Source: a virus
DNA length: 64,000 bases
Direction: 5' to 3' (one strand)
Virus record (IMG/VR): IMGVR_UViG_3300045988_165974
Coordinates: 32,001-96,000 of that record
A program made the translations under genes and the position numbers. Below, piece after piece: positions 840 through 59,806 of the stretch (within the stretch, counting starts at the first letter, position 1; every line of letters starts with the position of its first letter). Under the pieces are notes generated by a model. That model ran no database searches and was not told the DNA's origin. It was given only the letters and a program-made list of their open reading frames with translations.

Positions 840-2375
840 CTATTTTCCATTCTTTTCAGAATTAGATTCTCCTGTATCTGATTTAGAAGGTCTACCTCCT
901 TCATCTACTTTTGCAGAACTTGGAGTCTTATCACTCGAATCTTGATTTGAATCTGTACCACTTGTTTGATATGCACTTTCTAATGGTTTCATATCTTCGG
1001 CAACTTTTTCTAATTCTTCTATTTTAAGTGTATTCATAGCTCTAAGAGGAGTAAATCCCATTGTTGCAAAATATTTCCATTTAGAACCATATATAGTTAA
1101 ACCATCTTTTTCGTCCTTAGCCAATTGTCTCCAATTATGTTCAGTTGTTTTTACAAACTCTACCATCCAATTTCTAGTTTTTGAACTAGTTCTAAGTTCA
1201 TCATTTATCCAATTTTCTATTGATTTTTGAATAAATAATGGCAATAACACATCTACAGTTTCTCCATAACTTACTGCCTCTGTATTAGTTGAATTTCCAT
1301 TAAATATATCATTATTGATTCCTGCTGCATCATAAATAGTTTCTTTTACTTTATTAACATATTCAAGAGTTTTAGTTTGTGAATCACCTAATGTTATTTT
1401 TTCTAAAGGCATAGGAGTAGTAATTGCTCCACAACCTGTATTATTTAAGACTTTCTTTAAAGCTTCATGGAATTTTTGTAAAGTCTTTTTATCTAATTTC
1501 ATTCTACCTTTTTCATCGGTTTCTGCTTTTTGATATATTAAAATAAAGTTTTCTAATACTGCATTATTGTTTCGTAAATCTTCTAAATCTTCTAATGACA
1601 TTAAATTGTCAAATAAACTTGCAAAATAAGGAACTCCTTTTGTTCCCCAAACTTCTAATGAAAATGCAACTGCTTTATTATAATTACTTAAATCATACCA
1701 ACCATTATCAAAATTTTCATCATCAATTAATTGTCCATTAGTATATTTAATATATAGTTCCATAATTTCTTGAGGAAAATAGGCTAACTCTGTTGGAGAT
1801 ATGGCTGCTAAATTTATTTTATATCTTGAAACCATATTCCCAGTTTTGCTGCATATTTTACATAATTTATTAGGAATTTGTTGATATATAACACTATATC
1901 TATCCTTAATTATAAATAAAAAGATTTCTCCACAATCTAATATCTTTTCGGTAATCCATTTAGAATTATACTTTAAATTATATTTTTCTAATTCAGTAGC
2001 AGCCTTATATCTTGCCTCCCAAATATCTTCTTTTGTTTTATATTTACTTATATCTCTTGGAATTAAAAAATGGTCATATGTAAGAATTTTCGATTTGTAA
2101 TCTGTGAATTGTCTAACCATACCATTAGTATATTTAAATATTTCGGCTGCATCTTGCAATATTTCAATACTAGCAGTATTTGTTGGATTGGCTAAAGCTG
2201 TTCTTAATTGCTTTTTAGATATTTTTCTTCTTCTTGCTATTGAATCATATGTTGAGCCTATATATCCAACATTATTGTATACATAATTCGCAAAGGATTC
2301 GAATTCCTGTTTTTCAAAAGTAACTATATCACTTTCTGATTCGTTGATTTTCTTCTCTAAATCCAACTGATACAC
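840..2375 (-). CDS. portal protein (probable)
   Basis: 511-aa ORF starting 3 nt after the terminase large subunit stop. Its size and its Ser/Asp/Glu-rich C-terminal tail fit a portal. The GTG at 2375 overlaps the AGGAGG RBS, so TTG at 2366 is the likelier start. Confidence 0.65.
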   Translation of the reverse strand: MYQLDLEKKINESESDIVTFEKQEFESFANYVYNNVGYIGSTYDSIARRRKISKKQLRTALANPTNTASIEILQDAAEIFKYTNGMVRQFTDYKSKILTYDHFLIPRDISKYKTKEDIWEARYKAATELEKYNLKYNSKWITEKILDCGEIFLFIIKDRYSVIYQQIPNKLCKICSKTGNMVSRYKINLAAISPTELAYFPQEIMELYIKYTNGQLIDDENFDNGWYDLSNYNKAVAFSLEVWGTKGVPYFASLFDNLMSLEDLEDLRNNNAVLENFILIYQKAETDEKGRMKLDKKTLQKFHEALKKVLNNTGCGAITTPMPLEKITLGDSQTKTLEYVNKVKETIYDAAGINNDIFNGNSTNTEAVSYGETVDVLLPLFIQKSIENWINDELRTSSKTRNWMVEFVKTTEHNWRQLAKDEKDGLTIYGSKWKYFATMGFTPLRAMNTLKIEELEKVAEDMKPLESAYQTSGTDSNQDSSDKTPSSAKVDEGGRPSKSDTGESNSEKNGK

Positions 2376-2378
2376 CTC

Positions 2379-3490
2379 CTATGTTAAGAATACAAATGTA
2401 TCATCATCTGTGGTACTATTTGCATTTTCTTCTTCTTCTAGGTAGTCTGCTAAGAAGTTAGCATATCCAAGGCTAGAATATCTATCTTTTCTAGCTCTAC
2501 CTCTTTCTTTTATCTTGATGTATTTACCACCTTCAATACTATGGTCTAAATTTATAAGCTCATTAACTAAAGCTGTTGTTTGTAAAAATGGAGACATATA
2601 TTTAGCCTCTAATTCTGCTCTTAAATTAATATCTGTTATATCTCCTATCTTTTCTTCAAATATCATTTCCTTGGCATCTAAATGATTTAAAGGAAGTTCT
2701 ATTGTCTTATTCATAAGATTTTCTCTTAAACTCATAGCCACTTTATGATTTATTTCAGAATTTGGTTTCAATGAATATACAACAGGAAGGGAATTTCTTG
2801 CAGCAAATTCATCTACTGTATTGTCCTTATTAAAACAAGTAAAACCATCATACCAAACATCTCTTTCGTTATCATAATTGCTTTTTTGTAAATAACTCCA
2901 TACGGTTAACCCTAACCCTTGAGTATCTATTATCATATAATCTGCATCAAAATCATTAAATAATTGTTTTAATCTTATAGCTTGTGTTTCGGCTTCCATC
3001 CCATTATAACTTTCAATATTTACAACTATTCTTCTGAATTTTCCGTCAGAAGGAATTAATCTCATACAAGTATATACTGAGTTGTCATTTACAGAGCCTT
3101 TTGATAAAGCTATATCGGCAGATATTATTCTTATTTCTCCATTTAATTTTCTTAAATATCCTCTTTTATCTTTTTTCTTTTTCTTTTTATCCTCCATGTA
3201 CTCAATTGGAGTGGGAGGATAAAACATACTCTCTTGAGTTCTACAGTTATTGACAAATGAAGATTTAAAGAAAGCATCTTCTGATTCTCCATAGAATAAT
3301 CCACAATATTCCATAGCAAAACTTGCTTCTGTCATACTTTCTTTTTTCATTTCTCTTATTATTTTTTTCTTAGTTAATAATCCGTGGTCTAAACTACAAG
3401 TAAAAGGAATTGAACACATAAATGCATCTTCTCCTCTTACCATTGCATTTAAAACTTCCATACATTTAGCATAGCTCCAATGTCCTTTAT
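2379..3490 (-). CDS. terL: terminase large subunit, exon 4 (C-terminal/nuclease half)
   Basis: The frame continues from exon 3 across the junction ...LSSGW|YKGHWSYAKC. The four exons are 213+261+193+1112 nt, giving 593 in-frame codons. Confidence 0.8.
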
Positions 3491-4730
3491 CATATTGTTA
3501 TTAACCAATGGCTTTTTATCCATTGCTCTGGAGATTTCTCTCATTTGAAATTATCTTATCGGTTGGTCAATTCCAACCCAGATTGGCGTACATTTTTATT
3601 CTCTAATATTTATATGGCGAATATCGAATACTCTTGTTGATATTATATTCTGTGGAGGATGGCTATTCCCCAAACAGGTTCAATCAATACGCTCTACGAT
3701 ACTAATAACTCTTTAATTTTATTAGTTATCTCGGTATTTTCTTTTCTAATATTGAATTTATTTCTTTAACTTGTGAGTAATTAATCCTTATTAAATTAAT
3801 GTCATTCTTCTTACAAAAATTATTTTTTATGACATCATGCTTTTGTCTAATTTTAAATTTTTCTTTTCCTCCATAAAAATCGGTCGGTCTATAATGTTGT
3901 TCTCCATCAAATTCGATTGCAATATTAAAGTCATTTAAATAAAAATCAAAAGGGAGTGGACGAATATCTTTACAATACTTAAATTTATATTCTTTTTCAT
4001 ATTGTATATTATTCTTATCCAACCGTTCTGAAATTTTTATAACTCCAACACTTTCTTTTGATTGACAATTTGGACACTTTATTGTTTTCCCATTAAAATT
4101 TGAAAAAGCTCTAGTAAAAACACATCCACAATCTTCGTGTTTTAATGTTACTTTTCTTTGTGTATTAATTTCAATAATTTTAAATCCTTGATTATTTTTA
4201 TTTAAAACATTTTGCATATCTTCTATTGTTAATGTTTTATTTTTGCTTTCACATCTAGGACATATTACTTTTCTGTTTAAAAATCCTTTTAAATTTCTCT
4301 TAAAAACAAAATTACATTTCTTATGTTTTAAAGTTAAATAAGATTTATGAATACCATTGTATTCTAAATTAATTAATTCATAATCTTCTCCTATTTTTGA
4401 ATAAATATCTTCTAAAACTTTTTCAATAGGCTTGAACATTTTTGAGTTTGCATTTTCCTTAGAACAATCATTACATTGTATTTTATCTTGATTTTTAATG
4501 TTATAAAAATTTCTCTCAAAAATCTTTCCACATTTACATCTTAAAATTAATTTTTCAGAACCATTTTTATATTCTTTTGATAGCAACTCACAATCGGAAT
4601 TTTCTTCAATATAAGATTTTACTTGTTCATATGTAAATTTACTCATATTAACTCCTTTAAAGATTTTTACCGATATTACTCGATTACGGCTATAAGCACC
4701 CATATTTTACTTATAGCTAGGCAAAAGTTT
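3491..4730 (-). mobile_element. group I-like intron 3 of terL, carrying a homing endonuclease ORF
   Basis: The upstream exon ends in T and the intron ends ...TTAATAACAATATG (terminal G). A GC-richer structured core lies at 3491-3725, and its block at 3526-3563 is nearly identical to 6462-6499 in intron 1. Confidence 0.7.
3726..4703 (-). CDS. intron-encoded homing endonuclease: three Zn-ribbon repeats plus a DUF559/Vsr-like PD-(D/E)xK domain
   Basis: Repeated CxxC...CPxC units. C-terminal FDFYL..IAIEFDGEQH...K motif typical of Vsr/DUF559-fold nucleases. The ORF lies inside intron 3. Confidence 0.6.
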   Translation of the reverse strand: MGAYSRNRVISVKIFKGVNMSKFTYEQVKSYIEENSDCELLSKEYKNGSEKLILRCKCGKIFERNFYNIKNQDKIQCNDCSKENANSKMFKPIEKVLEDIYSKIGEDYELINLEYNGIHKSYLTLKHKKCNFVFKRNLKGFLNRKVICPRCESKNKTLTIEDMQNVLNKNNQGFKIIEINTQRKVTLKHEDCGCVFTRAFSNFNGKTIKCPNCQSKESVGVIKISERLDKNNIQYEKEYKFKYCKDIRPLPFDFYLNDFNIAIEFDGEQHYRPTDFYGGKEKFKIRQKHDVIKNNFCKKNDINLIRINYSQVKEINSILEKKIPR

Positions 4731-4923
4731 ACCATCCAGAACTTAAATATATCTCTTTGTTCTCTTCGATATATTTCTTCTTTAACATTGGATTATTTGC
4801 ATATTGAGGAAGACTTAAAAAACCTGGTTGTCTTGGATTTGTTAAGAAAGGTAATAAAACATCATCTAATATTTTTTGGTCTACCATTCTATATTCATCT
4901 ACAATCAAAATGTTGGCACGTTC
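4731..4923 (-). CDS. terL: terminase large subunit, exon 3 (Walker B)
   Basis: Encodes [13 protein letters not shown]... (Walker B ILIVDE). The junction DARG|ERAN with exon 2 is in frame. Confidence 0.8.
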
Positions 4924-6166
4924 CAATTTGTTATCCCATAAGCTCTTTATCTTATGGTTCTCATAAATTTCTTTATAAGTTCAGAGTACATTATCACTCT
5001 CATTTCATCTTAGCTCTCAATGAGTGTCGGAGGCTCTTGGAAGGATTATTGCTTTCATTTTGTCGCTCACCCTCTACTCGTTACGGACAATATTAGATAT
5101 TATTGCCCTCGGTATTACCACTACCCATTTTAGGGGTTAGGCTTTCTTACCAGTCTATCCCTCCTATTTCTAGGTTATATTTTTATGTACTTTCGACTAT
5201 GACCGATACACCCCGATTACGGCAATATGCACTTGAGAGTTTACATATTGCTAGGCTATTTGTAATATTTTGTTTGCTTTTATGTATTTTCTATCAAGAT
5301 AAATGGTTGCATTATCATACAATAAATGTACCAATTTCTTACATTCATTCTGTCGAGAAAAAGACAATTTATAACATGTATTGCTTAAATAAATTATTGA
5401 ATGTAATTCAAAATCTTTCTCCATTTTTTCTTTAATAAATTCAAAAATAGCTAAATTATTCCCTGCTATTGAGATATTAGGATATGATTTGTTTTTATTT
5501 TTCTTAAAACAATATGTACCATCTCCATCAATATACCCTCTTAGAAAATGTAAAAACAAAGTATTGTCTTCTATTCTTGGAAACACCTCTGAATAACTTT
5601 TATTTTGAACTATATTTTTATCTAATAAATCTAAATAAATTGATTTACTGTATACTCTAATAATGCAATTTACGCATTGTTTATTTCTAATTTTTTGGCC
5701 ATTTAAACGGTCAAGGGAATTATAATTACTAATTTTAGAATTAACTTTATAATAGTTATTAAAGTTTTTATTAAATTTATGTAAATGATTTATATCTTTA
5801 TAACTTAATTCTATTCCTAATTCATAGGTTCTATTTGAATGACTAATATATCCATCTGCATAAATAAATCCCAACCGATATGCTTTTTCTTCATTGTCAA
5901 TTTTATCAAAAAAACGTTGATTTCCTTTATCTTTATCAGAAATACTTTGTCTTAATTCTAGCTTGCCTTTTTGATAATCTATTGATTTTTCACTTCTTCC
6001 GATTAGTTTAGATAATTCTTTATTAGTATATTTTTTATAATTTTCTTTTAAAAATAAAATTTCTTCATCTTTCCGTTTTTTACTCACTTCGATTTCCTCC
6101 TAATTTTTTAAATTAGAAGGAATAAAGGCTTATACTCCTTTAAATTCCTAAGCAAACTTGAAAATA
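4924..6166 (-). mobile_element. group I-like intron 2 of terL, with a LAGLIDADG ORF
   Basis: The upstream exon ends ...AGAGGT and the intron ends ...GATAACAAATTG. A structured GC-richer core lies at 4924-5250. Confidence 0.7.
5251..6087 (-). CDS. LAGLIDADG homing endonuclease (double-motif)
   Basis: Two LAGLIDADG-type motifs (LGFIYADGYI and LRGYIDGDGT) in a 278-aa intron ORF. Confidence 0.85.
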   Translation of the reverse strand: MSKKRKDEEILFLKENYKKYTNKELSKLIGRSEKSIDYQKGKLELRQSISDKDKGNQRFFDKIDNEEKAYRLGFIYADGYISHSNRTYELGIELSYKDINHLHKFNKNFNNYYKVNSKISNYNSLDRLNGQKIRNKQCVNCIIRVYSKSIYLDLLDKNIVQNKSYSEVFPRIEDNTLFLHFLRGYIDGDGTYCFKKNKNKSYPNISIAGNNLAIFEFIKEKMEKDFELHSIIYLSNTCYKLSFSRQNECKKLVHLLYDNATIYLDRKYIKANKILQIA

Positions 6167-6427
6167 ACCTCTGGCATCTTGATTAGCTACAATAGCTTCT
6201 ATTCTACTTCCATTCCAAAATGTAATAGAAACCTCTTTACTATTAATCTGAATATCTTTAATTTCTTTTTGTAGAGCCTCGGATGTTTTATATAACTCTC
6301 CAATTATCTTATCTGTAATTATCTTTTGAGCTTGTTTCTTTCTCTTAGCTGCGACGATTATCTTTGTTCCTGGTTTTAAAGTGCAAATTAAAACTGAAAA
6401 AACTGAAATTAGCCACGTTTTGCCAAG
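6167..6427 (-). CDS. terL: terminase large subunit, exon 2 (Walker A)
   Basis: Minus-strand translation LGKTWLISVF...ANQDARG, 87 codons, with no ATG so it is not in the ORF track. It completes Walker A as CTRG|LGKTW. Confidence 0.8.
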
Positions 6428-7738
6428 CGATTGTTATTAACTGTAAGTTTTTTACCTTACACTCTGGAGGTTTCCCTCATTTGAAGTTATCTAATCGGTA
6501 TGTTAATTCATACCCAGTCTAGCATACACCTTCACCCTCGTTTAACGTTAGGAGATTAGATTTTACTCTATATCTAATAATTCTTTAAATTATTGTGTCG
6601 GAGGCTCGTGTTAGTATTATATTCTGCATAACAGTTTCAACTATAATGCGTTACGAATTCTAAATCCTTTTAAAGACTTAGTTCATCTCGGTATTAGCAT
6701 ATTTATTAATATAGAATCGAACAGTAGTATCACTAACATTCAATTCTTTTGATATTTCATCTATTGTATTATTCTTTTTAAAATACATGTCAATAATTTT
6801 ATTTTTTATTTTTGAAGTAATCTTTTGATTATAATTATAAGGATTAGAAACACCTCTAAGATAACCATTTACAGTACTACTAGGCAATTTTACAATATTT
6901 ATAATTTCACATTCTCTTAGTCCTTGTTCTTTTAATCTCATAACTTCATCATATTTTTTTAATCTTTCTTCATATGCTATTTGTTTTGTATTTCTATTTT
7001 CATATACAACCTTTTCTACAACACTTGAAGTATATCCTTCTGATGAAACTATTTCACAAATTCTCATACCACTATCATACAATTTTAAAATTTTTTCATT
7101 TCTTTCTTGTATAAGCTTCTTTTTCATTTTGTACATTAGTGGGTTTAATTCAGGATTTATATATTTAAAAATATTTCCTCTCGCAATTTTATCAATTTGA
7201 GATTTTGAGGTATTAAAAATTTTAGCAATTTCTTTTCTATCCATTAAGTTATATATTAAAAGTTTAATTCTTCTTATATCAGATTCAGATAGTTTGGAAT
7301 GTTTCATTCTTTTAGTATTACTTAACTTGATTCTACTTTCTATTGACATAGTTCCACCACCTTCTCCTCCTTCGGTAAGATTATACCCAAAATTTGGATT
7401 AGCAGTATTGAATTTATCAATATAAAACATTTCTTTATCATTTAATTCTTCTTTAGTTGTCTCTTCTAGTAATTCAAAAATAAAACTTTCTTTTCCATAT
7501 TTATCAAAAGCATTTTGTAAATGACAATTATAATGTTTACCTCTTCTTAACAGACCTTTATGTGCTAATATTCTGTCTTTAACATGAATTGATTGACCTA
7601 TGTATTTTTTATTATCTTTTATATTTGTTATACAATAAATTCCTACCATATTCCCTCCGATTACATTAATAAATTTAGCCTCCACCGATTCCCCCCGATT
7701 TATTACCCTTATATTTCTATAAGGGAGGGCATTGGTCT
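6428..7738 (-). mobile_element. group I-like intron 1 of terL, with a GIY-YIG ORF
   Basis: Exon 1 ends ...AGGGGT and the intron ends ...TTAATAACAATCG. It shares its 3' tail and core block with intron 3. Confidence 0.7.
6678..7685 (-). CDS. GIY-YIG homing endonuclease with C-terminal HTH repeats
   Basis: N-terminal GIYCITN...KYIGQS (GIY-YIG) and a conserved R/E/N core. The C-terminal half has repeated helix-turn-helix-like units. It is intron-encoded. Confidence 0.85.
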   Translation of the reverse strand: MEAKFINVIGGNMVGIYCITNIKDNKKYIGQSIHVKDRILAHKGLLRRGKHYNCHLQNAFDKYGKESFIFELLEETTKEELNDKEMFYIDKFNTANPNFGYNLTEGGEGGGTMSIESRIKLSNTKRMKHSKLSESDIRRIKLLIYNLMDRKEIAKIFNTSKSQIDKIARGNIFKYINPELNPLMYKMKKKLIQERNEKILKLYDSGMRICEIVSSEGYTSSVVEKVVYENRNTKQIAYEERLKKYDEVMRLKEQGLRECEIINIVKLPSSTVNGYLRGVSNPYNYNQKITSKIKNKIIDMYFKKNNTIDEISKELNVSDTTVRFYINKYANTEMN

Positions 7739-7951
7739 ACCCCTAGTACAGGACATTAAAAATTGGTCGCTTTTAAACATAAAGTATATTAATATCTGTT
7801 GGAATATATGAAGTGGAAATTCAAAATAATCCAAAGCGAATCTATGAGGGTTAGCTAAATAAAATCCACCCCAATATTCACCTATTCCTTCTAATAGATT
7901 TTCAGACGAATCATTAGATGTCAATTCTCTATCTTCATATTTAGTCCTCAT
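7739..7951 (-). CDS. terL: terminase large subunit, exon 1
   Basis: 71 codons, MRTKYED...ANPHRFALDYF...MSCTRG. Its start overlaps the stop of the upstream gene, the usual terS-terL arrangement. Confidence 0.8.
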
Positions 7952-8859
7952 TTACATCACTCGCTTTTTCTAATTCTTCTTCAAATTCTTTACTTAATTC
8001 AATGGCAGTATCTCCATCTTCAATTGTATATTCCCCTGTAGCAAGTCCTAAGAACTTAGCTAAAGGTTTTATAAGATATTTAGTTATATACTTTCCAATT
8101 CCATCTATATCTTCATACTCTTCTAATTTTACTAGGATTGGCTTCGTTCTTTCATAAATTTGCATTTTAGTACCAAAAGTTTCTCCTGCCGTTTCTCCAG
8201 CTTTTTTCTTTTGATTTGGTTTTACATCGGCATCTTGCATTTTAGAAGAAACTAATTTAGACATTTTTTCAAAGGTAGCCATATCTCCATTGATTCTAGC
8301 TTTCTGACCTTCTAATTCAATCACACACAGTTCCTTAAATAGTTTCTTTGTAGTAAGTTCTCTTGGAGCATAGAACTCGTCATACTCTTTATACGCCCTT
8401 TCTAGTATACGATATTCGTCATCCGTATACCCTTTGCCCCATTTAATTCTGATTGAATAGGTGATTGGAAATTCATCCTCTGCCCCTAATTCATCTAAAA
8501 TCTTTATTTCAAATAAACTATCTAAAGAAGTCTTTCCTTTATATTTCCTATGATTAGAACCCATTCTTCTCATGTAAACAACCATAAGAGGCTCACTACC
8601 ACCCCTCAACGGCTTTGCTAGTTCTTCATCATAATAAATATCAAAGTTCATGCAAAAGTGTCTTAAAGCCAGTAATTCATTCCCTTTATATAAACCTTCT
8701 AAAACTTTATATCTTTCAAGAAGGCAATCTTTACATATCGGAATCTTTTCATCTTCATATAAGGCACTATATGTACTGTAAAAATGTCTTTGCATTTCTT
8801 TTTCTTCTTTACAATCGTTGCATTTTAATTTTGGTTTTTCTACTCTTTTCTTCTTCAAT
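7941..8859 (-). CDS. possible terminase small subunit
   Basis: Lies immediately upstream of terL and overlaps it. The track ORF runs to 8969, but that extension crosses a terminator hairpin. TTG at 8859 with an AGAGGTGAG RBS is the plausible start. It carries CxxC...CxxC. Confidence 0.45.
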
Positions 8860-10193: not shown

Positions 10194-10330
10194 TGGAAAC
10201 AGTTGGATTTGAACCAACACCCTCTTCTTGACCTATAAGATTTAATTTCTTCTTTTAAATATATTGCTGTATGTGTCCCATAATCCCACTAGACACATAA
10301 TTATTTGTGCTACCATTACACCATGTTTCC
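10194..10330 (-). ncRNA. tRNA-like gene with about 64 extra nt between D arm and T arm
   Basis: Acceptor GGAAACA/TGTTTCC, D arm GTGT-AATGGTA-GCAC and T arm GTTGG-TTCAAAT-CCAAC are intact. The middle holds the hairpin ATGTGTC..GGACACAT plus ACAGCAAT. No standard anticodon arm is present. Confidence 0.6.
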
Positions 10331-14114: not shown

Positions 14115-14425
14115 AAACAGATATTCCTTTCATTAAATTAAATTAATAACTCAGCTACACAAGTAACTGTTATGCGTACTATACTGTACTGTTACCATAC
14201 AGTTGTTTCGACTTCAACTCGACAATGATATAAAGGCTTTTTACATATACATTACAAGGCTGTTCTTACTCTGACCTAACTTAAATGTATACGATAGAGC
14301 AATGGTCTGTTGCGTCAACCAAAGGTATCATGACTTAAATATCGTAGCCATCATTTCTGTGGCTTAGTCTGGTGAACCATTTAACAGAAGCCCATAAGCT
14401 TTAGCTTGTGGGTAGTTCACTTAAT
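14115..14425 (-). ncRNA. putative IscB omega-RNA scaffold
   Basis: About 300 nt directly 5' of iscB, locally GC-richer and ORF-free. It has several helices, e.g. GTGAAC..GTTCAC and CCCACAAGCT-AA-AGCTTATGGG. The position matches published IscB omega-RNAs. Confidence 0.65.
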
Positions 14426-14695
14426 TATTCCTGGAAGGAGATTTTTCAATTACAATGCACAAATATTATTAATAAAATCCTTTTTTTATCATAAACATAA
14501 TTGCTGTATGTGCATTTAATTATATTAACTTTAAGAAGGTACTTATCAAGACACTAAACATTATAAATATGAAACTTCCTAGAATTGTTCAATTTATTTT
14601 GAGGATTTGAACCTCTAAAGCACTTGTTTATTGACTTATTTACCTATTTGAATTAATTGCTGTAAGTGTCTTTTGAATGTATATTTTTAGAACAG

Positions 14696-14818: not shown

Positions 14819-14936
14819 TGCCGAAGAATAGATTTGAACTATTATCCTATAGCTTCCCTGTTTGAAATTGCTGCTTATGTATTTATCAATACATCTATTT
14901 ATTGGCTATTGCTCCAACCATTTGAGCTACTTCGGC
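14819..14936 (-). ncRNA. tRNA-like gene with a 51-nt anticodon loop
   Basis: Perfect acceptor GCCGAAG/CTTCGGC, D arm GCTC/GAGC, anticodon stem ATAGC/GCTAT and T arm AATAG-TTCAAAT-CTATT. The loop holds hairpin ATGTATT-GATA-AATACAT plus AAGCAGCAAT. Confidence 0.65.
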
Positions 14937-15592: not shown

Positions 15593-16786
15593 TTAACAAT
15601 GTTGCTTTGCACTATGTTTTTTATGTCTTTCCTCTGTCTCGCATTTTTTACACTTCGGTCTATATCTATCTTTGTTTTTTGAAAAGTGATGTATTAGTTT
15701 AGTTTCTCCACATTTAGAGCATTTTTTCCATGTTCCTTTTACAACATAAGTGTAATACCGTTCTCGGTACTCCTCCCAATATTTCTTCTCTATTACCTTA
15801 CAAATACTATTTATTGTTATGTTAACCAATTGTTGTTTCATATGTAAGATTTCTATTATCTGATAAGGTTTTACATTTCTTCTGTATAGATTTAAAACAT
15901 TCTGTTGATTCTTTGTAAAAGTACACCTACTAAGTACATCTTCAAAATCCATCATGACACAAACCATATCTGTATCATCTATTCCTTCATACTTCATTCT
16001 AAGTAAGCTTCTTATCTCTTTTTCTGTCGGAATATCAATTTCTTTAAACATCTGTGAACCAGTTGGGACTAAAGGACTTTTAAATGTTATTGGTCTTTCT
16101 AGCAATAATTTGCCATTATTTAAATCGTCTTTAACTCCATGAACTAGATAACTAAGTTCCATAGTTCCGTTTCCACTTTTCATTTTATCAATTAAGTGGA
16201 CATATAAATCGTAATAATTTTTTAAGACCTCGTGTTTTTCAATATCTTTCTTTTCAAACACAACATCTTTTACTTTATTATAATTATGTTCTACTGCTTG
16301 AAATATTGGAAAAGCTTCCCCATTATATGTTTCTTTATTATTTATATAAGGAACTCCTCCATTTCCTATCGCTAATTGATTCATAACTTTTTCTTCTTTG
16401 CAAGCTCTTCTAAACAGCTCTTTACTATTATAGATTTTATACTTTAATTCTTTCTTTTGTTGAACCTCTCCGTCTATTATGTGTTCCTTAGAATTAAGAA
16501 TATAAGTACCTAACCTCTCTAAATAGATTGCTACATTAGAAGTTGAATATAAGCTATCCTCTTTTGATAAGTGAATTTTTATTTTCTGTCTTTCTTCTGT
16601 ATCAAAAAGTTCCTCAAAGAATTCGTCATAAAACTCTTTTCCATTTATCTCATAAGTGCCTAACATATCTTTCACATATTTAACTCTATTGTCACTTCTT
16701 TGGATTGTATAGTCTAATTCATAATAATCTCTGATTGACTTCCCACACAGTTTTCCATAAAAATTGTTATTATGAAATTCATTCAA
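15593..16786 (-). CDS. hypothetical protein with a sigma-region-4-like HTH and a C-terminal Zn ribbon
   Basis: 397-aa ORF behind two TTGACA-17-TATAAT promoters. It carries an HTH-like LSRCTFTKNQQNVLNLYRRNVKPYQIIEIL and CSKCG...CKKC. Confidence 0.5.
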   Translation of the reverse strand: MNEFHNNNFYGKLCGKSIRDYYELDYTIQRSDNRVKYVKDMLGTYEINGKEFYDEFFEELFDTEERQKIKIHLSKEDSLYSTSNVAIYLERLGTYILNSKEHIIDGEVQQKKELKYKIYNSKELFRRACKEEKVMNQLAIGNGGVPYINNKETYNGEAFPIFQAVEHNYNKVKDVVFEKKDIEKHEVLKNYYDLYVHLIDKMKSGNGTMELSYLVHGVKDDLNNGKLLLERPITFKSPLVPTGSQMFKEIDIPTEKEIRSLLRMKYEGIDDTDMVCVMMDFEDVLSRCTFTKNQQNVLNLYRRNVKPYQIIEILHMKQQLVNITINSICKVIEKKYWEEYRERYYTYVVKGTWKKCSKCGETKLIHHFSKNKDRYRPKCKKCETEERHKKHSAKQHC

Positions 16787-17834: not shown

Positions 17835-18596
17835 TTATTTTTCTAAGTATTTCACGAACTCTTCTCCATTTGTGCAGAAAGTTTTTATCATAGCCTTCAT
17901 TAAGCTATATGACATTTCAGAATGATTTTGGCTGTCTAATTCTGCACTTGCTTGTTTGAAACTATCTTCTGTATTTTTCTTTAATATTTCTTCTATAAAT
18001 AAAGTACAACTTAACTCCATTCCTTCATAAAGGTCACTGGCTCTGATTGGAACTACTTTATCCCACTCTTCCCATTTGTCATGAGAAAGAACTTTATGAC
18101 CTTCTTCAATCCATTTCTCAATATCTTTAACTCCTTCTAAACTTTTTAGGCACATCTTCTTATTTAAATAATTAGCAACTTCTTCTAATGAATTAAAATA
18201 TTTCCCACCATTTCTTTTTACCATTTTTCCAACTTTATCTAAAGACTTTAATTCATCTTCATCAAAATATAATTCAGTTTCATCTAGTTCATCTAAGTCA
18301 TGTGGTAATATTTTATCATCATCTGCAAAATCTCTATCTAATATACAAAATATTGTTTTTGCTGGTCTTTTGTTGCTATCATCTATTACTTCTGCAATAG
18401 AATATACTCCATTCATTCTAGGAGTTATAACATATAGACAATAATCACACATTTCTCTTTGTCTTAACTCTTCTTGATAACATTCTTCTGTCCAATCGTC
18501 TACGACTGGATTGAAATAATCCACTTTCAACATTGGAATTAATTTTTCTCTCCATTTACTATTATTGCATGTTCCGCCTAAAAATACTTTACTCAT
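17835..18596 (-). CDS. nucleoside 2-deoxyribosyltransferase-like domain protein
   Basis: The N-terminal pattern VFLGGTCNNSKWR..LIP.L..DYFNP......DYCLYVITP...G.YSIAEV resembles the Nuc_deoxyri_tr2 family. The C-terminal half is unknown. Confidence 0.45.
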   Translation of the reverse strand: MSKVFLGGTCNNSKWREKLIPMLKVDYFNPVVDDWTEECYQEELRQREMCDYCLYVITPRMNGVYSIAEVIDDSNKRPAKTIFCILDRDFADDDKILPHDLDELDETELYFDEDELKSLDKVGKMVKRNGGKYFNSLEEVANYLNKKMCLKSLEGVKDIEKWIEEGHKVLSHDKWEEWDKVVPIRASDLYEGMELSCTLFIEEILKKNTEDSFKQASAELDSQNHSEMSYSLMKAMIKTFCTNGEEFVKYLEK

Positions 18597-31971: not shown

Positions 31972-32025
31972 ATTTGTAAACCTACCGAGGGCGGTCCAAA
32001 GTCCGTGTAAAAGGTGATGGCAAAT
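31972..32025 (+). ncRNA. twister ribozyme candidate (C1)
   Basis: P1 ATTTG/CAAAT, T|AA, P2 ACCT/AGGT, P4 GCGG/CCGT with loop TCCAAAGT, then GATGG. Predicted cut at 31977/31978. Confidence 0.7.
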
Positions 32026-46903: not shown

Positions 46904-47090
46904 ACAAGCATTTGTAGGTATGTACCGATGGCTTTAGTCGGGAATTTACGACTGTGGACTGTACAAGAACTTGTGAGTAGTGTATTACTTTGTAATCACA
47001 AAAGCATACAGGATGAAACAGTAAGAAAAGTTTGTGAAAACTTTCAATATCTCGATATGGGTATATTTGTCCATATTTTGAGTGGCAGGA
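46780..47090 (+). ncRNA. putative TnpB omega/reRNA scaffold and right end
   Basis: ORF-free, GC-richer stretch overlapping and following the tnpB 3' end. Hairpin CCGATGGCTTTAGTCGG (46925-46941) and AATTTACGAC..TGGA, also seen after the second tnpB. Ends are uncertain. Confidence 0.45.
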
Positions 47091-59631: not shown

Positions 59632-59806
59632 TATCATTAATAAGATAATGCTAATATGTAGGATGCGTTGTATCCAAATTTACGCCCTTGGAGAGTTATA
59701 TCAAACGAAAGTAGGTTGTTATTTATAATTTCCAAAATCGAATTCGTAGAACAGGGAATTAAACAAGATTTATAGATATTTATAGATTTTTGGCAACGGA
59801 GTAAAT

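Follow-up and report, generated by a model that had tools for sequence, protein, structure and literature searches.

Organization of the Split Terminase Gene

The DNA analyzed here is a stretch of 64,000 nucleotides (nt), hereafter the window, covering positions 32,001 to 96,000 of the IMG/VR virus record IMGVR_UViG_3300045988_165974, and our attention was focused on the gene for the large terminase subunit (TerL), which lies on the minus strand between positions 7951 and 2379 and in which four exons alternate with three inserts that we read as group I introns. The source record is 138,243 base pairs (bp) long, has direct terminal repeats and is classed as complete; the phage is probably a large temperate one resembling phiCD211, SPbeta and Clostridioides phages. 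All exons, introns and intron-borne genes described below are on the minus strand.

The first terL open reading frame (ORF), starting at 7951, hits a stop after the ...SCTRG codons, and three more open pieces follow downstream. Exon 1 (7739..7951) encodes residues 1-71 and ends in ...CTRG, its last base being U; exon 2 (6167..6427, 261 nt) encodes residues 72-158, from LGKTW to DARG; exon 3 (4731..4923, 193 nt) provides residues 159-222 and the first base of codon 223, ending in SSGW; and exon 4 (2379..3490) encodes residues 223-592, with the nuclease domain, and terminates at the stop codon at 2379-2381. When joined, the exons make up 1779 nt, that is 592 codons and a stop, in a single frame with zero internal stops. 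Loss of exon 2 alone would also keep the frame.

Comparison with uninterrupted homologues was then used to examine these joins (in protein motifs and exon ends, a slash marks the insertion point). BLASTP aligned the spliced protein with the uninterrupted TerL of phiCD211 at 66% identity, gapless at every junction, and its N-terminus, MRTKYEDRELTSNDSS, agrees with that of phiCD211 TerL, MRTKYEKRELSSNDSS. Junction 1 (CTRG/LGKTW) aligns to ASRGLGKSW of the phiCD211 protein, junction 2 (DARG/) aligns to it gaplessly in the same comparison, and junction 3 (LSSGW/YKGHWSY) aligns to LSSGWYSQHWSY. All three junctions were likewise free of gaps in a five-protein alignment with the uninterrupted TerL of phiCD211, LIBA2945, LC76P1 and SPbeta YonF. 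In tblastn against phage genomes, residues 1-589 formed one segment, 65.5% identical, in the Clostridioides phages phiCD211 and phiCDIF1296T, where the gene is uninterrupted, and more than 100 other phages, SPbeta YonF included, were matched at 39-44%. The DNA of the region also matches 1.7 kilobases (kb) of contiguous phiCD211 DNA, in four collinear pieces. As the joins to uninterrupted TerL are gapless in the protein alignments and the DNA match is collinear, the exon structure is established. A first-pass annotation of this DNA, made from its letters alone, had assembled 593 codons from the four pieces and had proposed that the joins restore the motifs CTRG/LGKTW, DARG/ and SSGW/YKGHW; both statements held, the latter against four uninterrupted homologues, and the alignment with uninterrupted terL genes did not indicate separate pseudogene pieces.

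The product is a TerL protein, with an ATPase domain that contains Walker A and Walker B and a C-terminal RNaseH-like nuclease domain. Pfam Terminase_6N (33.1 bits, cut-off 22) and TerL_ATPase (28.9 bits, cut-off 23.7) match the spliced protein, both across junctions, while Terminase_6C reaches 20.1 bits, slightly below its cut-off of 22.6; PHROG 2 (terminase large subunit) matches at 6.8e-27. The insertion points lie inside Walker A, 5 residues ahead of the Walker B strand and directly past the SSGW stretch, which we take to be TerL motif III. Two further profiles, both labelled 'unknown function', match parts of the protein, phrog_15503 at residues 9-226 and phrog_26582 at residues 245-581; the likely source of both profiles is terL pieces from other phages in which introns split the gene.

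Other readings of the interruptions were rejected. Inteins do not fit, as the inserts have stops in the terL frame and their endonuclease ORFs own their ribosome-binding sites and starts. For group II introns, a reverse transcriptase is absent and the boundaries do not fit. Separate translation of the terL pieces was discarded too, with the internal exons having neither start codon nor Shine-Dalgarno sequence; what looks like a TTG start for exon 3, at 4926, consists of the final three bases of intron 2.

The Inserts as One Family of Group I Introns

Used as blastn queries, the 3' ends of the inserts returned short matches beside split genes in several phages, namely gyrA of AR9/PBS1, terL of Clostridium phage vB_CpeS-1181 and terL of Bacillus phage BCP8-2, with further matches in a Twort-like Staphylococcus phage and in a crAss-like phage. 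In an exact-pattern scan, the most conserved block, the P9b motif AATGAGRGAAAYCTCCAGAG, was found at more than 100 IMG/VR loci among the matches listed.

The elements of this family follow each other in the order P1-P2-P3-P4-P5-P4'-P6-P7-P7.1-P3'-P8-P7'-P9-P9.1. The 5' splice site comes after a U and is followed by approximately 8-14 nt, a guide starting with G and a P2 hairpin that in most cases has a GAAA loop; next come UAAUAAA, a variable 7-mer (the P3 5' strand), AAA (J3/4) and AUCGGU (the P4 5' strand). P5, which holds an ORF in many members, is followed by the P4 3' strand AAUACCGAG, the P6 hairpin and GUA. The 5' strand of P7 is A[C]GCAUA or G[A]GCGUA, where the bracketed base is bulged, and its 3' strand is UAUGCU or UACGCC. 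Between the two stand the P7.1 hairpin, with UGAA...AAUAUAAU loops, then CAAGAG (or CACGAG), which is conserved and single-stranded, a second variable 7-mer (the P3 3' strand), the P8 hairpin and an A-rich J8/7. P9 is a three-way structure (CUG...CAG) around the hairpins P9a and P9b (GAGGGAAACCUC), and P9.1 follows it; the tail is GUUAAUAAC, with 3-6 nt to a terminal G. With interleaved P3 and P7 and an IA-type P7.1, the inserts have the order of group I introns.

To evaluate the proposed helices, 43 cores were aligned with MAFFT and 44 proposed pairs were scored, with partners slid by 1-3 columns and 500 column shuffles as controls. Standard pairs filled 94.1% of the cells, as compared to 32-43% after sliding, and two-sided changes were found in 34 pairs (444 cells), none of the 500 shuffles attaining any of the observed measures. 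Covariation supports P6, P7, P7.1, P8 and P9a, P9b and P9.1. Within P7, column pair 49/220 is AU in 30 sequences and GC in 13, and column pair 53/217 is AU in 22, GC in 19 and CG in 1; directly after the bulge, 42 of the 43 sequences have a G-C pair, and P7 with its bulge is present in all three terL introns. Judging from the family, this helix would bind guanosine. All 5 pairs of P7.1 show double changes (97.6% paired), and it is this extra helix between P7 and the P3 3' strand that makes the introns IA-like; P7.2 as a separate helix was not seen in the alignment of the 43 cores.

The strands of P3 can be more than 1 kb apart, and they were evaluated by searching for a perfect partner of the 7 nt after CAAGAG, located 5' of an upstream [AT]TCGG[TAG] or AAAAUCGGU motif and 1-5 nt apart from it. 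Such a 7-nt partner was found at 39 of 74 distinct loci, with 49 different 7-mers in the P3 3' strand, as against a mean of 3.1 and a maximum of 10 when the P3 3' strands were swapped among loci. With the P4 motif placed without using complementarity, 32 of 50 rows still had seven of seven P3 pairs. P4 (AUCGGU with ACCGAG) is present in all three introns.

The ends of the inserts also fit. The 5' exons end in ...GGGGT, ...GAGGT and ...ATGGT (introns 1, 2 and 3, respectively), and the inserts end in GTTAATAACAATCG, GGGATAACAAATTG and TTAATAACAATATG, the terminal base being G in each, as it generally is across the family; the T and the G that the first-pass annotation had noticed can thus be read at all three splice sites. 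Guides covary with exon ends in the family (for instance GGGGU with GCCCC, GAGGU with GCUUC, GAGGU with GCCUC). Directly 5' of the guide, 4-bp P10 candidates were found (CCAA with UUGG in intron 1, GUUU with GAAC in intron 2, CUUU with AAAG in intron 3), and these possible pairings with the start of the 3' exon are loosely consistent with a group I intron. The group I likeness proposed in the first-pass annotation was upheld by covarying core helices, by the U that closes each 5' exon and the G that closes each intron, and by a guide that could pair with the exons on either side. The nearly identical core block of introns 1 and 3 was also found as described, with 34 of 38 positions identical between 6499-6462 and 3563-3526.

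For a covariance model, designated R1, we used only 32 sequences from outside, the window sequences being excluded; it has 169 positions and 36 pairs. With default filters, R1 gave exactly three matches in the window at E <= 1, all on the minus strand and over the full model: intron 3 at 3494-3699 (140.9 bits, E 5e-28), intron 1 at 6430-6656 (106.3 bits, E 1e-20) and intron 2 at 4924-5086 (62.2 bits, E 2e-11). The matches end at the proposed 3' splice sites, and in matching all three introns the model bears out their relatedness, which had been claimed at first sight. With filters off over 2000-8400, two weak additional matches of 17.2 and 6.6 bits appeared inside exon 4, which we take as noise. 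R1 also matches both gyrA inserts of AR9 (151-154 bits, full-length model) and the terL insert of the C. perfringens phage (182 bits). The single tblastn segment over residues 1-589, together with an independent RNA model that matches in three places only, far exceeds chance.

Structure of the Individual Introns

Intron 1 (6428..7738, 1311 nt) is located inside Walker A (G/LGKT) and has its ORF in the P5 loop. Its 5' core (7684..7730) comprises the guide, P2 and the 5' strands of P3 and P4. The guide GCCCU (7730-7726) pairs with the exon sequence GGGGU, giving a P1 of GGGGU/A with UGCCCU, and is followed by the P2 hairpin (7725-7706), CCCUUAUA-GAAA-UAUAAGGG; both P1 and P2 were recovered by a minimum-energy fold. 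P3 is formed by UCGGGGG (7698-7692) and CCUCCGA (6604-6598), and P4 by AUCGGU (7689-7684) and ACCGAG (6692-6687), the last codons of the cargo gene overlapping the P4 3' strand. The 3' core (6430..6656) contains P7 (A[C]GCAUU with GUAUGCU), P7.1, CACGAG, the P3 3' strand, an extended P8, P9 with P9a and P9b, and P9.1, and the terminal G of the tail is at 6428.

Intron 2 (4924..6166, 1243 nt) follows DARG/, 5 residues ahead of the Walker B strand, and carries its ORF between P2 and P3. The ribozyme body (4924..5250) is contiguous, with P2.1, P3 to P9.1 and the tail GAUAACAAAUUG. P3 pairs UCGGGG with CCUCCGA, P4 pairs AUCGGU with ACCGAG, and P7 pairs A[C]GAGUA with UACUCU; in addition, the intron has a P2.1 hairpin, P6, a simple GAAA-capped P9 and P9.1. 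The core of P7, P7.1, CAAGAG, P3 3' strand and P8 is the same as in introns 1 and 3. Its long P5 extension is approximately 75-78% identical to sequences in BCP8-2, where they lie within the split terL, and in the Twort-like phage.

Intron 3 (3491..4730, 1240 nt) interrupts SSGW/YKGHW in phase 1 and has its ORF in the P5 loop. The 5' core (4669..4724) again comprises the guide, P2 and the 5' strands of P3 and P4. The guide UUGCC (4724-4720) pairs with GGU/AA across the splice site, and a minimum-energy fold recovers P1 together with P2, the latter at 4717-4689. The 8-bp P3, AUCGAGUA (4684-4677) with UAUUCGAU (3630-3623), shows compensatory changes relative to intron 1, and P4 has its 5' strand AUCGGU at 4674-4669 and its 3' strand ACCGAG at 3735-3730. 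In the 3' core (3494..3699) are found P7 (G[A]GCGUA with UACGCC), P7.1 with an additional hairpin, CAAGAG, the P3 3' strand, P8, P9 with P9a and P9b, and P9.1; the tail ends in its terminal G at 3491.

Several alternative assignments were tried and rejected. GCCAUCC (3661-3655), considered as a remote guide of intron 3, is the loop of an optional P7.1 hairpin, a hairpin that the IMG/VR loci L072, L077 and L102 have as well (L numbers denote fetched loci). The comparative data identify GAGCCUCCGACA, another guide candidate, as the linker plus the P3 3' strand. A P7 of CAAGAG with CUCUG in intron 2 gave way to the actual P7, A[C]GAGUA with UACUCU, and UCGGGG is not P4 but P3, with P4 being the AUCGGU after it.

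Endonuclease Genes Carried by the Introns

Each intron carries a gene of a different homing-endonuclease family, and all three ORFs are intact and of full length against PHROG profiles. The cargo of intron 1 (6678..7646, 322 amino acids) is a GIY-YIG enzyme with helix-turn-helix domains, encoded in the P5 loop (L5) with a GGAGGG Shine-Dalgarno sequence before the ATG at 7646. It matches PF01541 with 32.2 bits (cut-off 22.6) and phrog_7168 (homing endonuclease) at 1.4e-34, and contains the motifs GIYCITN...KYIGQS.

Located between P2 and P3, the cargo of intron 2 (5251..6087, 278 amino acids, GTG start) is a double-motif LAGLIDADG protein, with LGFIYADGY and LRGYIDGDG in one chain. It matches PF14528 (LAGLIDADG_3) with 30.1 bits (cut-off 22.5) and phrog_4645 at 6.1e-41, and its matches in the PDB are weak (I-HjeMI, E 8.6e-5; I-AniI, E 3.6e-4). 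The AGGAGG Shine-Dalgarno sequence of this ORF is placed inside an 11-bp hairpin at approximately 6120-6096, CCUUCUAAUUU-AAA-AAAUUAGGAGG, which may limit translation of the LAGLIDADG protein from the precursor RNA.

The third cargo gene (3726..4646, 306 amino acids), again in L5, starts with the ATG at 4646 behind an AAGGAG Shine-Dalgarno sequence, its stop codon standing directly 3' of the P4 3' strand, and encodes zinc-ribbon repeats followed by a C-terminal nuclease domain. It matches PHROG 559 at 4.6e-63, a profile that has been given a VSR superfamily signature and has been reported in terL introns (PMC11878797). In Pfam the C-terminal domain stayed below the cut-offs (DUF5889, 26.1 against 27.1 bits; DUF2726, 22.3 against 24.7; DUF559, 14.4 against 20.6), and a PDB sequence search with the ORF returned noise only. 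The residues D234, E245, G248, H251, D271 and K274 do not vary among 11 homologues, and D247 hardly does. The AlphaFold model has a predicted local distance difference test score (pLDDT) above 90 at residues 200-306, and Foldseek compared it to E. coli Vsr (1vsr) with a probability of 0.99, a template-modelling (TM) score of 0.55, a root-mean-square deviation of 4.0 over 119 columns and a non-significant E of 0.13; this search, made with the whole multi-domain model, otherwise gave mostly spurious kinase matches. Altogether, the domain is probably a Vsr-like PD-(D/E)xK nuclease. The same three families had been named in the first-pass annotation (GIY-YIG, double-motif LAGLIDADG, and zinc-ribbon with a Vsr/DUF559-like domain), the first two now scoring above Pfam cut-offs and the third being probably Vsr-like.

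Occupancy of the Terminase Sites in Related Phages

Using five TerL proteins, an alignment-based scan recovered at least 435 TerL relatives in IMG/VR, whereas a relative search with the single spliced TerL as query found none. When every fetched locus was compared locally with the spliced TerL by tblastn, 78 homologues were uninterrupted and 24 split, so that the same sites are occupied in some phages and empty in others, and the breaks cluster at 71/72, approximately 158 and 216-223. Site 71/72 is occupied in 11 loci, including near-identical copies, among them L072, L188, L189, L011, L021, L025, L040 and L041. At approximately 158 the gene is broken in L017, L044 and L073, and at 165/166 in L052; site 216/217 is occupied in L188, L017, L076 and L102, site 221/223 in L104, and site 222/223 in L043 and L099. 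In L077 the tblastn match to TerL starts at residue 226, from which we place its insert at about the position of intron 3.

The closest intron-bearing relative, L188, has two introns in terL. In L017 (IMGVR_UViG_3300030381_000407, minus strand, approximately 2960-60), a 40%-identical terL contains three introns of the same RNA family, which are short and without a full endonuclease gene. They are inserted at ASRGLG/KSF, GARG/LRGNVLVADE and ...MEI/YLSSAW, that is, offset from the present sites by 6 nt, 0 nt and approximately 5-6 codons.

The cargo varies among occupants of one site. At Walker A, relatives carry a GIY-YIG gene (L188, L189 and L072, whose ORFs are close relatives of the cargo of intron 1), a LAGLIDADG gene in the P1 loop, L1 (L011, L021, L040 and L041), or none (L024 and L025), and Vsr-like relatives of the cargo of intron 3 are found near 216/217 in L188 and L102. 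Across the family, GIY-YIG, HNH, LAGLIDADG and Vsr-like genes all occur in L5. These comparisons support a frequent turnover of endonuclease cargo across the intron family, and it is at this level that the swapping of cargo proposed in the first-pass annotation was sustained, the Walker A site carrying GIY-YIG, LAGLIDADG or no ORF.

The relationships of the cores were analyzed with FastTree on 100 non-identical cores aligned to R1 (approximately 170 columns). The three introns sit in three separate clades, each beside introns of other contigs: the core of intron 1 adjoins L083, that of intron 2 adjoins two introns of L017, and that of intron 3 adjoins L077, near L017, L076 and L102. The tree, being unrooted and built on approximately 170 columns, speaks against a recent common origin within the gene and gives no order of events. 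As the clades are separate and the same sites are occupied in other contigs, we conclude on three independent arrivals at recurrent hot spots; that is, the evidence favours introns that arrived separately at TerL sites which appear to recur as targets in related phages.

Three or four R1-family cores were also observed within 1.4-6.5 kb in L051 (1114-2731), L062 (10835-12184) and L043 (2279-8799).

Interpretation and Rival Explanations

Overall, we favour, with a probability of about 0.9, the reading that terL is functional and that the three inserts interrupting it are mobile group I introns, all from one IA-like family. Each intron would fold into a ribozyme extending from P1 through P9.1, in which a guide lying 4-17 nt into the intron would pair with the end of the upstream exon, a U.G wobble forming at the splice site itself, and the guide region would also pair with the first bases of the downstream exon. 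Guanosine-initiated two-step splicing would then remove the introns and restore a TerL of 592 amino acids. With its own ribosome-binding site and homing-endonuclease gene in a peripheral loop, each intron would also encode an enzyme that cuts intron-less terL alleles of co-infecting relatives, into which the intron would be copied. Self-splicing of the terL introns, and endonucleases that are active and aimed at these sites, are thus predicted from sequence, and it is reasonable to expect that packaging would depend on three splicing events.

Some observations weigh against this reading. P1 is short, with 5-6 bp in introns 1 and 3, and in intron 2 it is ambiguous: the candidate guide GCUU (nt 14-17) would form 4 bp and is contiguous with the P10 partner GUUU, and the candidate GCCUUU (nt 38-43) would form 6 bp with AGAGGU and is preferred by the minimum-energy fold, so that, with two candidate guides, this P1 is the least certain of the three. 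P4 and the three-way stem of P9 are invariant across the family; as they never vary, they are consistent with the structure only and receive no support from covariation. Splicing of the three introns is inferred from sequence, and some phage introns of a similar kind failed to self-splice in vitro and may need factors (PMC11878797). Finally, the three introns went unmatched by the Rfam group I model RF00028, even with the limit set at E <= 10, both in region 2000-8400 and in the search of the whole genome, and the Rfam scan of the window at the gathering threshold found no intron model either. The genome-wide RF00028 search produced two sub-threshold matches elsewhere (42 and 32 bits), none in terL. 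In control searches, the regional Rfam scan missed those 42- and 32-bit matches even when given their loci directly, and the genome-wide RF00028 search found 20 introns in AR9 and missed the two gyrA inserts, which are homologous to the terL inserts and interrupt a coding sequence annotated in GenBank as a three-piece join. As both search routes missed RF00028 matches or related inserts in these controls, the negative result weighs little, and the controls point to a lack of sensitivity more than to absence.

Splicing being deduced and the Rfam model being silent, it could be argued that terL is dead, that is, disrupted by endonuclease cassettes and decayed intron remnants in a defective prophage unable to package, all the more as the record is a metagenome-derived virus contig. 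We consider this highly improbable: the four exons share one frame, with indel-free joins and 66% identity to an intact TerL, the three ribozymes have kept all their core helices and reach 62-141 bits with an independent family model, the three endonuclease ORFs are of full length, and the genome has direct terminal repeats and is rated complete. A milder alternative keeps the introns as real and makes at least one of them dependent on a protein factor, either a LAGLIDADG maturase, a kind of protein established in organelles, or a host factor, in which case conditional splicing could gate late expression. The short P1 helices and the ambiguous guide of intron 2 would suit such a dependence, and so would the several Bastillevirinae phage introns that spliced in vivo and not in vitro (PMC11878797). 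Nevertheless, we regard it as unlikely, since the sequence holds nothing that demands a cofactor, and ORF-less relatives occur at the same sites, in L024 (307 nt), L025 (292 nt) and L017, as well as in gyrA of AR9, from which we argue that RNA alone is sufficient in this family.

It was also considered that one intron spread within terL, by ectopic transposition or reverse splicing, and that its endonuclease was replaced afterwards, much as the first-pass annotation had supposed. A single family model matches all three introns, introns 1 and 3 have the 34/38 block and an identical P9 architecture in common, and P3 is nearly identical in introns 1 and 2 (UCGGGG(G) with CCUCCGA). However, the block is conserved family-wide and is therefore no mark of recent common origin, the cores fall into three separate clades, and other contigs are occupied at the same TerL sites, partly with related endonucleases, which makes such a spread quite improbable. 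Of the earlier proposal of one lineage at three ATPase sites, the placement in the ATPase region and the single RNA family stand, but the spread within the gene is not supported.

Comparison with Known Multi-Intron Genes

Group I introns with homing endonucleases in essential genes of phages are classical. The view that they usually occur singly, expressed in the first-pass annotation, understates the literature, as cases of two or three introns in a single phage gene, among them terL, have been published (PMC11878797). In particular, Bastillevirinae are known in which two or three group I introns split terL (SIOphi, phiAGATE and others; PMC11878797, NAR 2025), and in the Bacillus phage SIOphi terL splicing was demonstrated in vivo as well as in vitro; the same work describes exon skipping in a multi-intron gene, cargo of the GIY-YIG, HNH, LAGLIDADG and VSR types, and a heterogeneous 'IA2' group (PMC11878797). 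The present gene resembles those in being split by multiple group I introns, which are mostly IA-like there, and in the homing endonucleases that most introns hold in a loop, with PHROG 559 found specifically in terL introns. It differs in the TerL lineage, which is phrog_675 there (PMC11878797) and of the phiCD211/SPbeta YonF type here, in the phage, which is large, probably temperate and Clostridioides-phage-like, in its three cargo families being all distinct, and in the mode of detection, since the Bastillevirinae set was found with Rfam and GISSD models and the present introns are unmatched by RF00028.

The gyrA inserts of AR9/PBS1 (KU878088.1) are members of this RNA family and share its P7/P7.1/P3'/P8/P9 architecture and its tail, but are ORF-less, approximately 440 nt long and located in another host gene of a jumbo Bacillus phage. 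Moreover, orf142 of Staphylococcus phage Twort is said to contain three group I introns, as reported by Landthaler and Shub in 1999. That case is alike in that a single late structural gene contains three group I introns which self-splice, and the host gene differs. Twort orf142 is also mentioned in PMC11878797. In the unannotated record of a Twort-like Staphylococcus phage, a stretch approximately 75% identical to part of the P4-P6 region of intron 2 adjoins an ORF that by eye resembles a zinc-ribbon/Vsr-like endonuclease; the Twort-like introns have the classical GAUAUAGUC element in their 3' cores, with an RF00028 match in one of them, and in this the present introns differ. A group I intron in terL of Lactobacillus phage LL-H was reportedly described by Mikkonen and Alatossava in 1995, a single one in contrast to the three found here.

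Therefore, the three-intron terL is a further example of an arrangement already published in other phages. What is particular here is the different TerL lineage and phage type, the presence of three endonuclease families in one gene, and an abundant intron clade that was undetected by the Rfam model in the present searches.

Other RNA Elements in the Same Genome

Ahead of the window start, intron cores were observed on the minus strand of the genome (G000) at 14399-14640, 16518-16742 and 18182-18381. Two of them are the sub-threshold RF00028 matches (42 and 32 bits), and the third, at 18182-18381, is the fourth R1-family member of the genome (118 bits). Together with the three terL introns, this phage therefore has at least six introns. 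In the window, a full-length match to Rfam HEARO (HNH endonuclease-associated RNA and ORF) was found at 14207-14420 on the minus strand (103.9 bits, gathering threshold 83), as were two full-length matches to RAGATH-18 on the plus strand, at 46951-47024 (74.9 bits) and 59685-59758 (67.6 bits). Stretched matches to the Rfam tRNA model at 10194-10330 (137 nt) and 14819-14936 (118 nt), both on the minus strand, are called as tRNA by ARAGORN in neither case.

Implications

A wider reading can be put forward only tentatively, and we hold it to be doubtful in its present form. The R1 introns could represent a distinct IA-like clade, abundant in phages and missed by Rfam-based annotation, that is a repeat coloniser of TerL ATPase regions, and it might be recognized by the bulged P7, a single P7.1, the conserved CAAGAG linker, the three-way P9 with its GAAA-capped hairpin GAGGGAAACCUC and a tail of the form GUUAAUAAC-N3-6-G. 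On this tentative reading, three ATPase regions of the TerL lineage would have been colonised repeatedly, at insertion points offset by 0-6 codons; the six introns of the phage could jointly act against intron-less co-infecting relatives; late gene expression could depend on splicing; and exon skipping between similar introns would be possible.

Our knowledge of how group I introns work is unchanged by these results. In practical terms, gene callers would output four terL fragments here together with three 'hypothetical' or 'HNH' genes, and the R1 family model finds introns that the Rfam model missed in the present searches. Moreover, the gene and its relatives are a clean natural data set for studying hot spots of homing in an essential ATPase. 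Several TerL lineages are hit in these three regions, the endonuclease families being different and the positions slightly shifted. Altogether, they constitute a candidate system for intron-mediated competition among related phages similar to Clostridioides phages.

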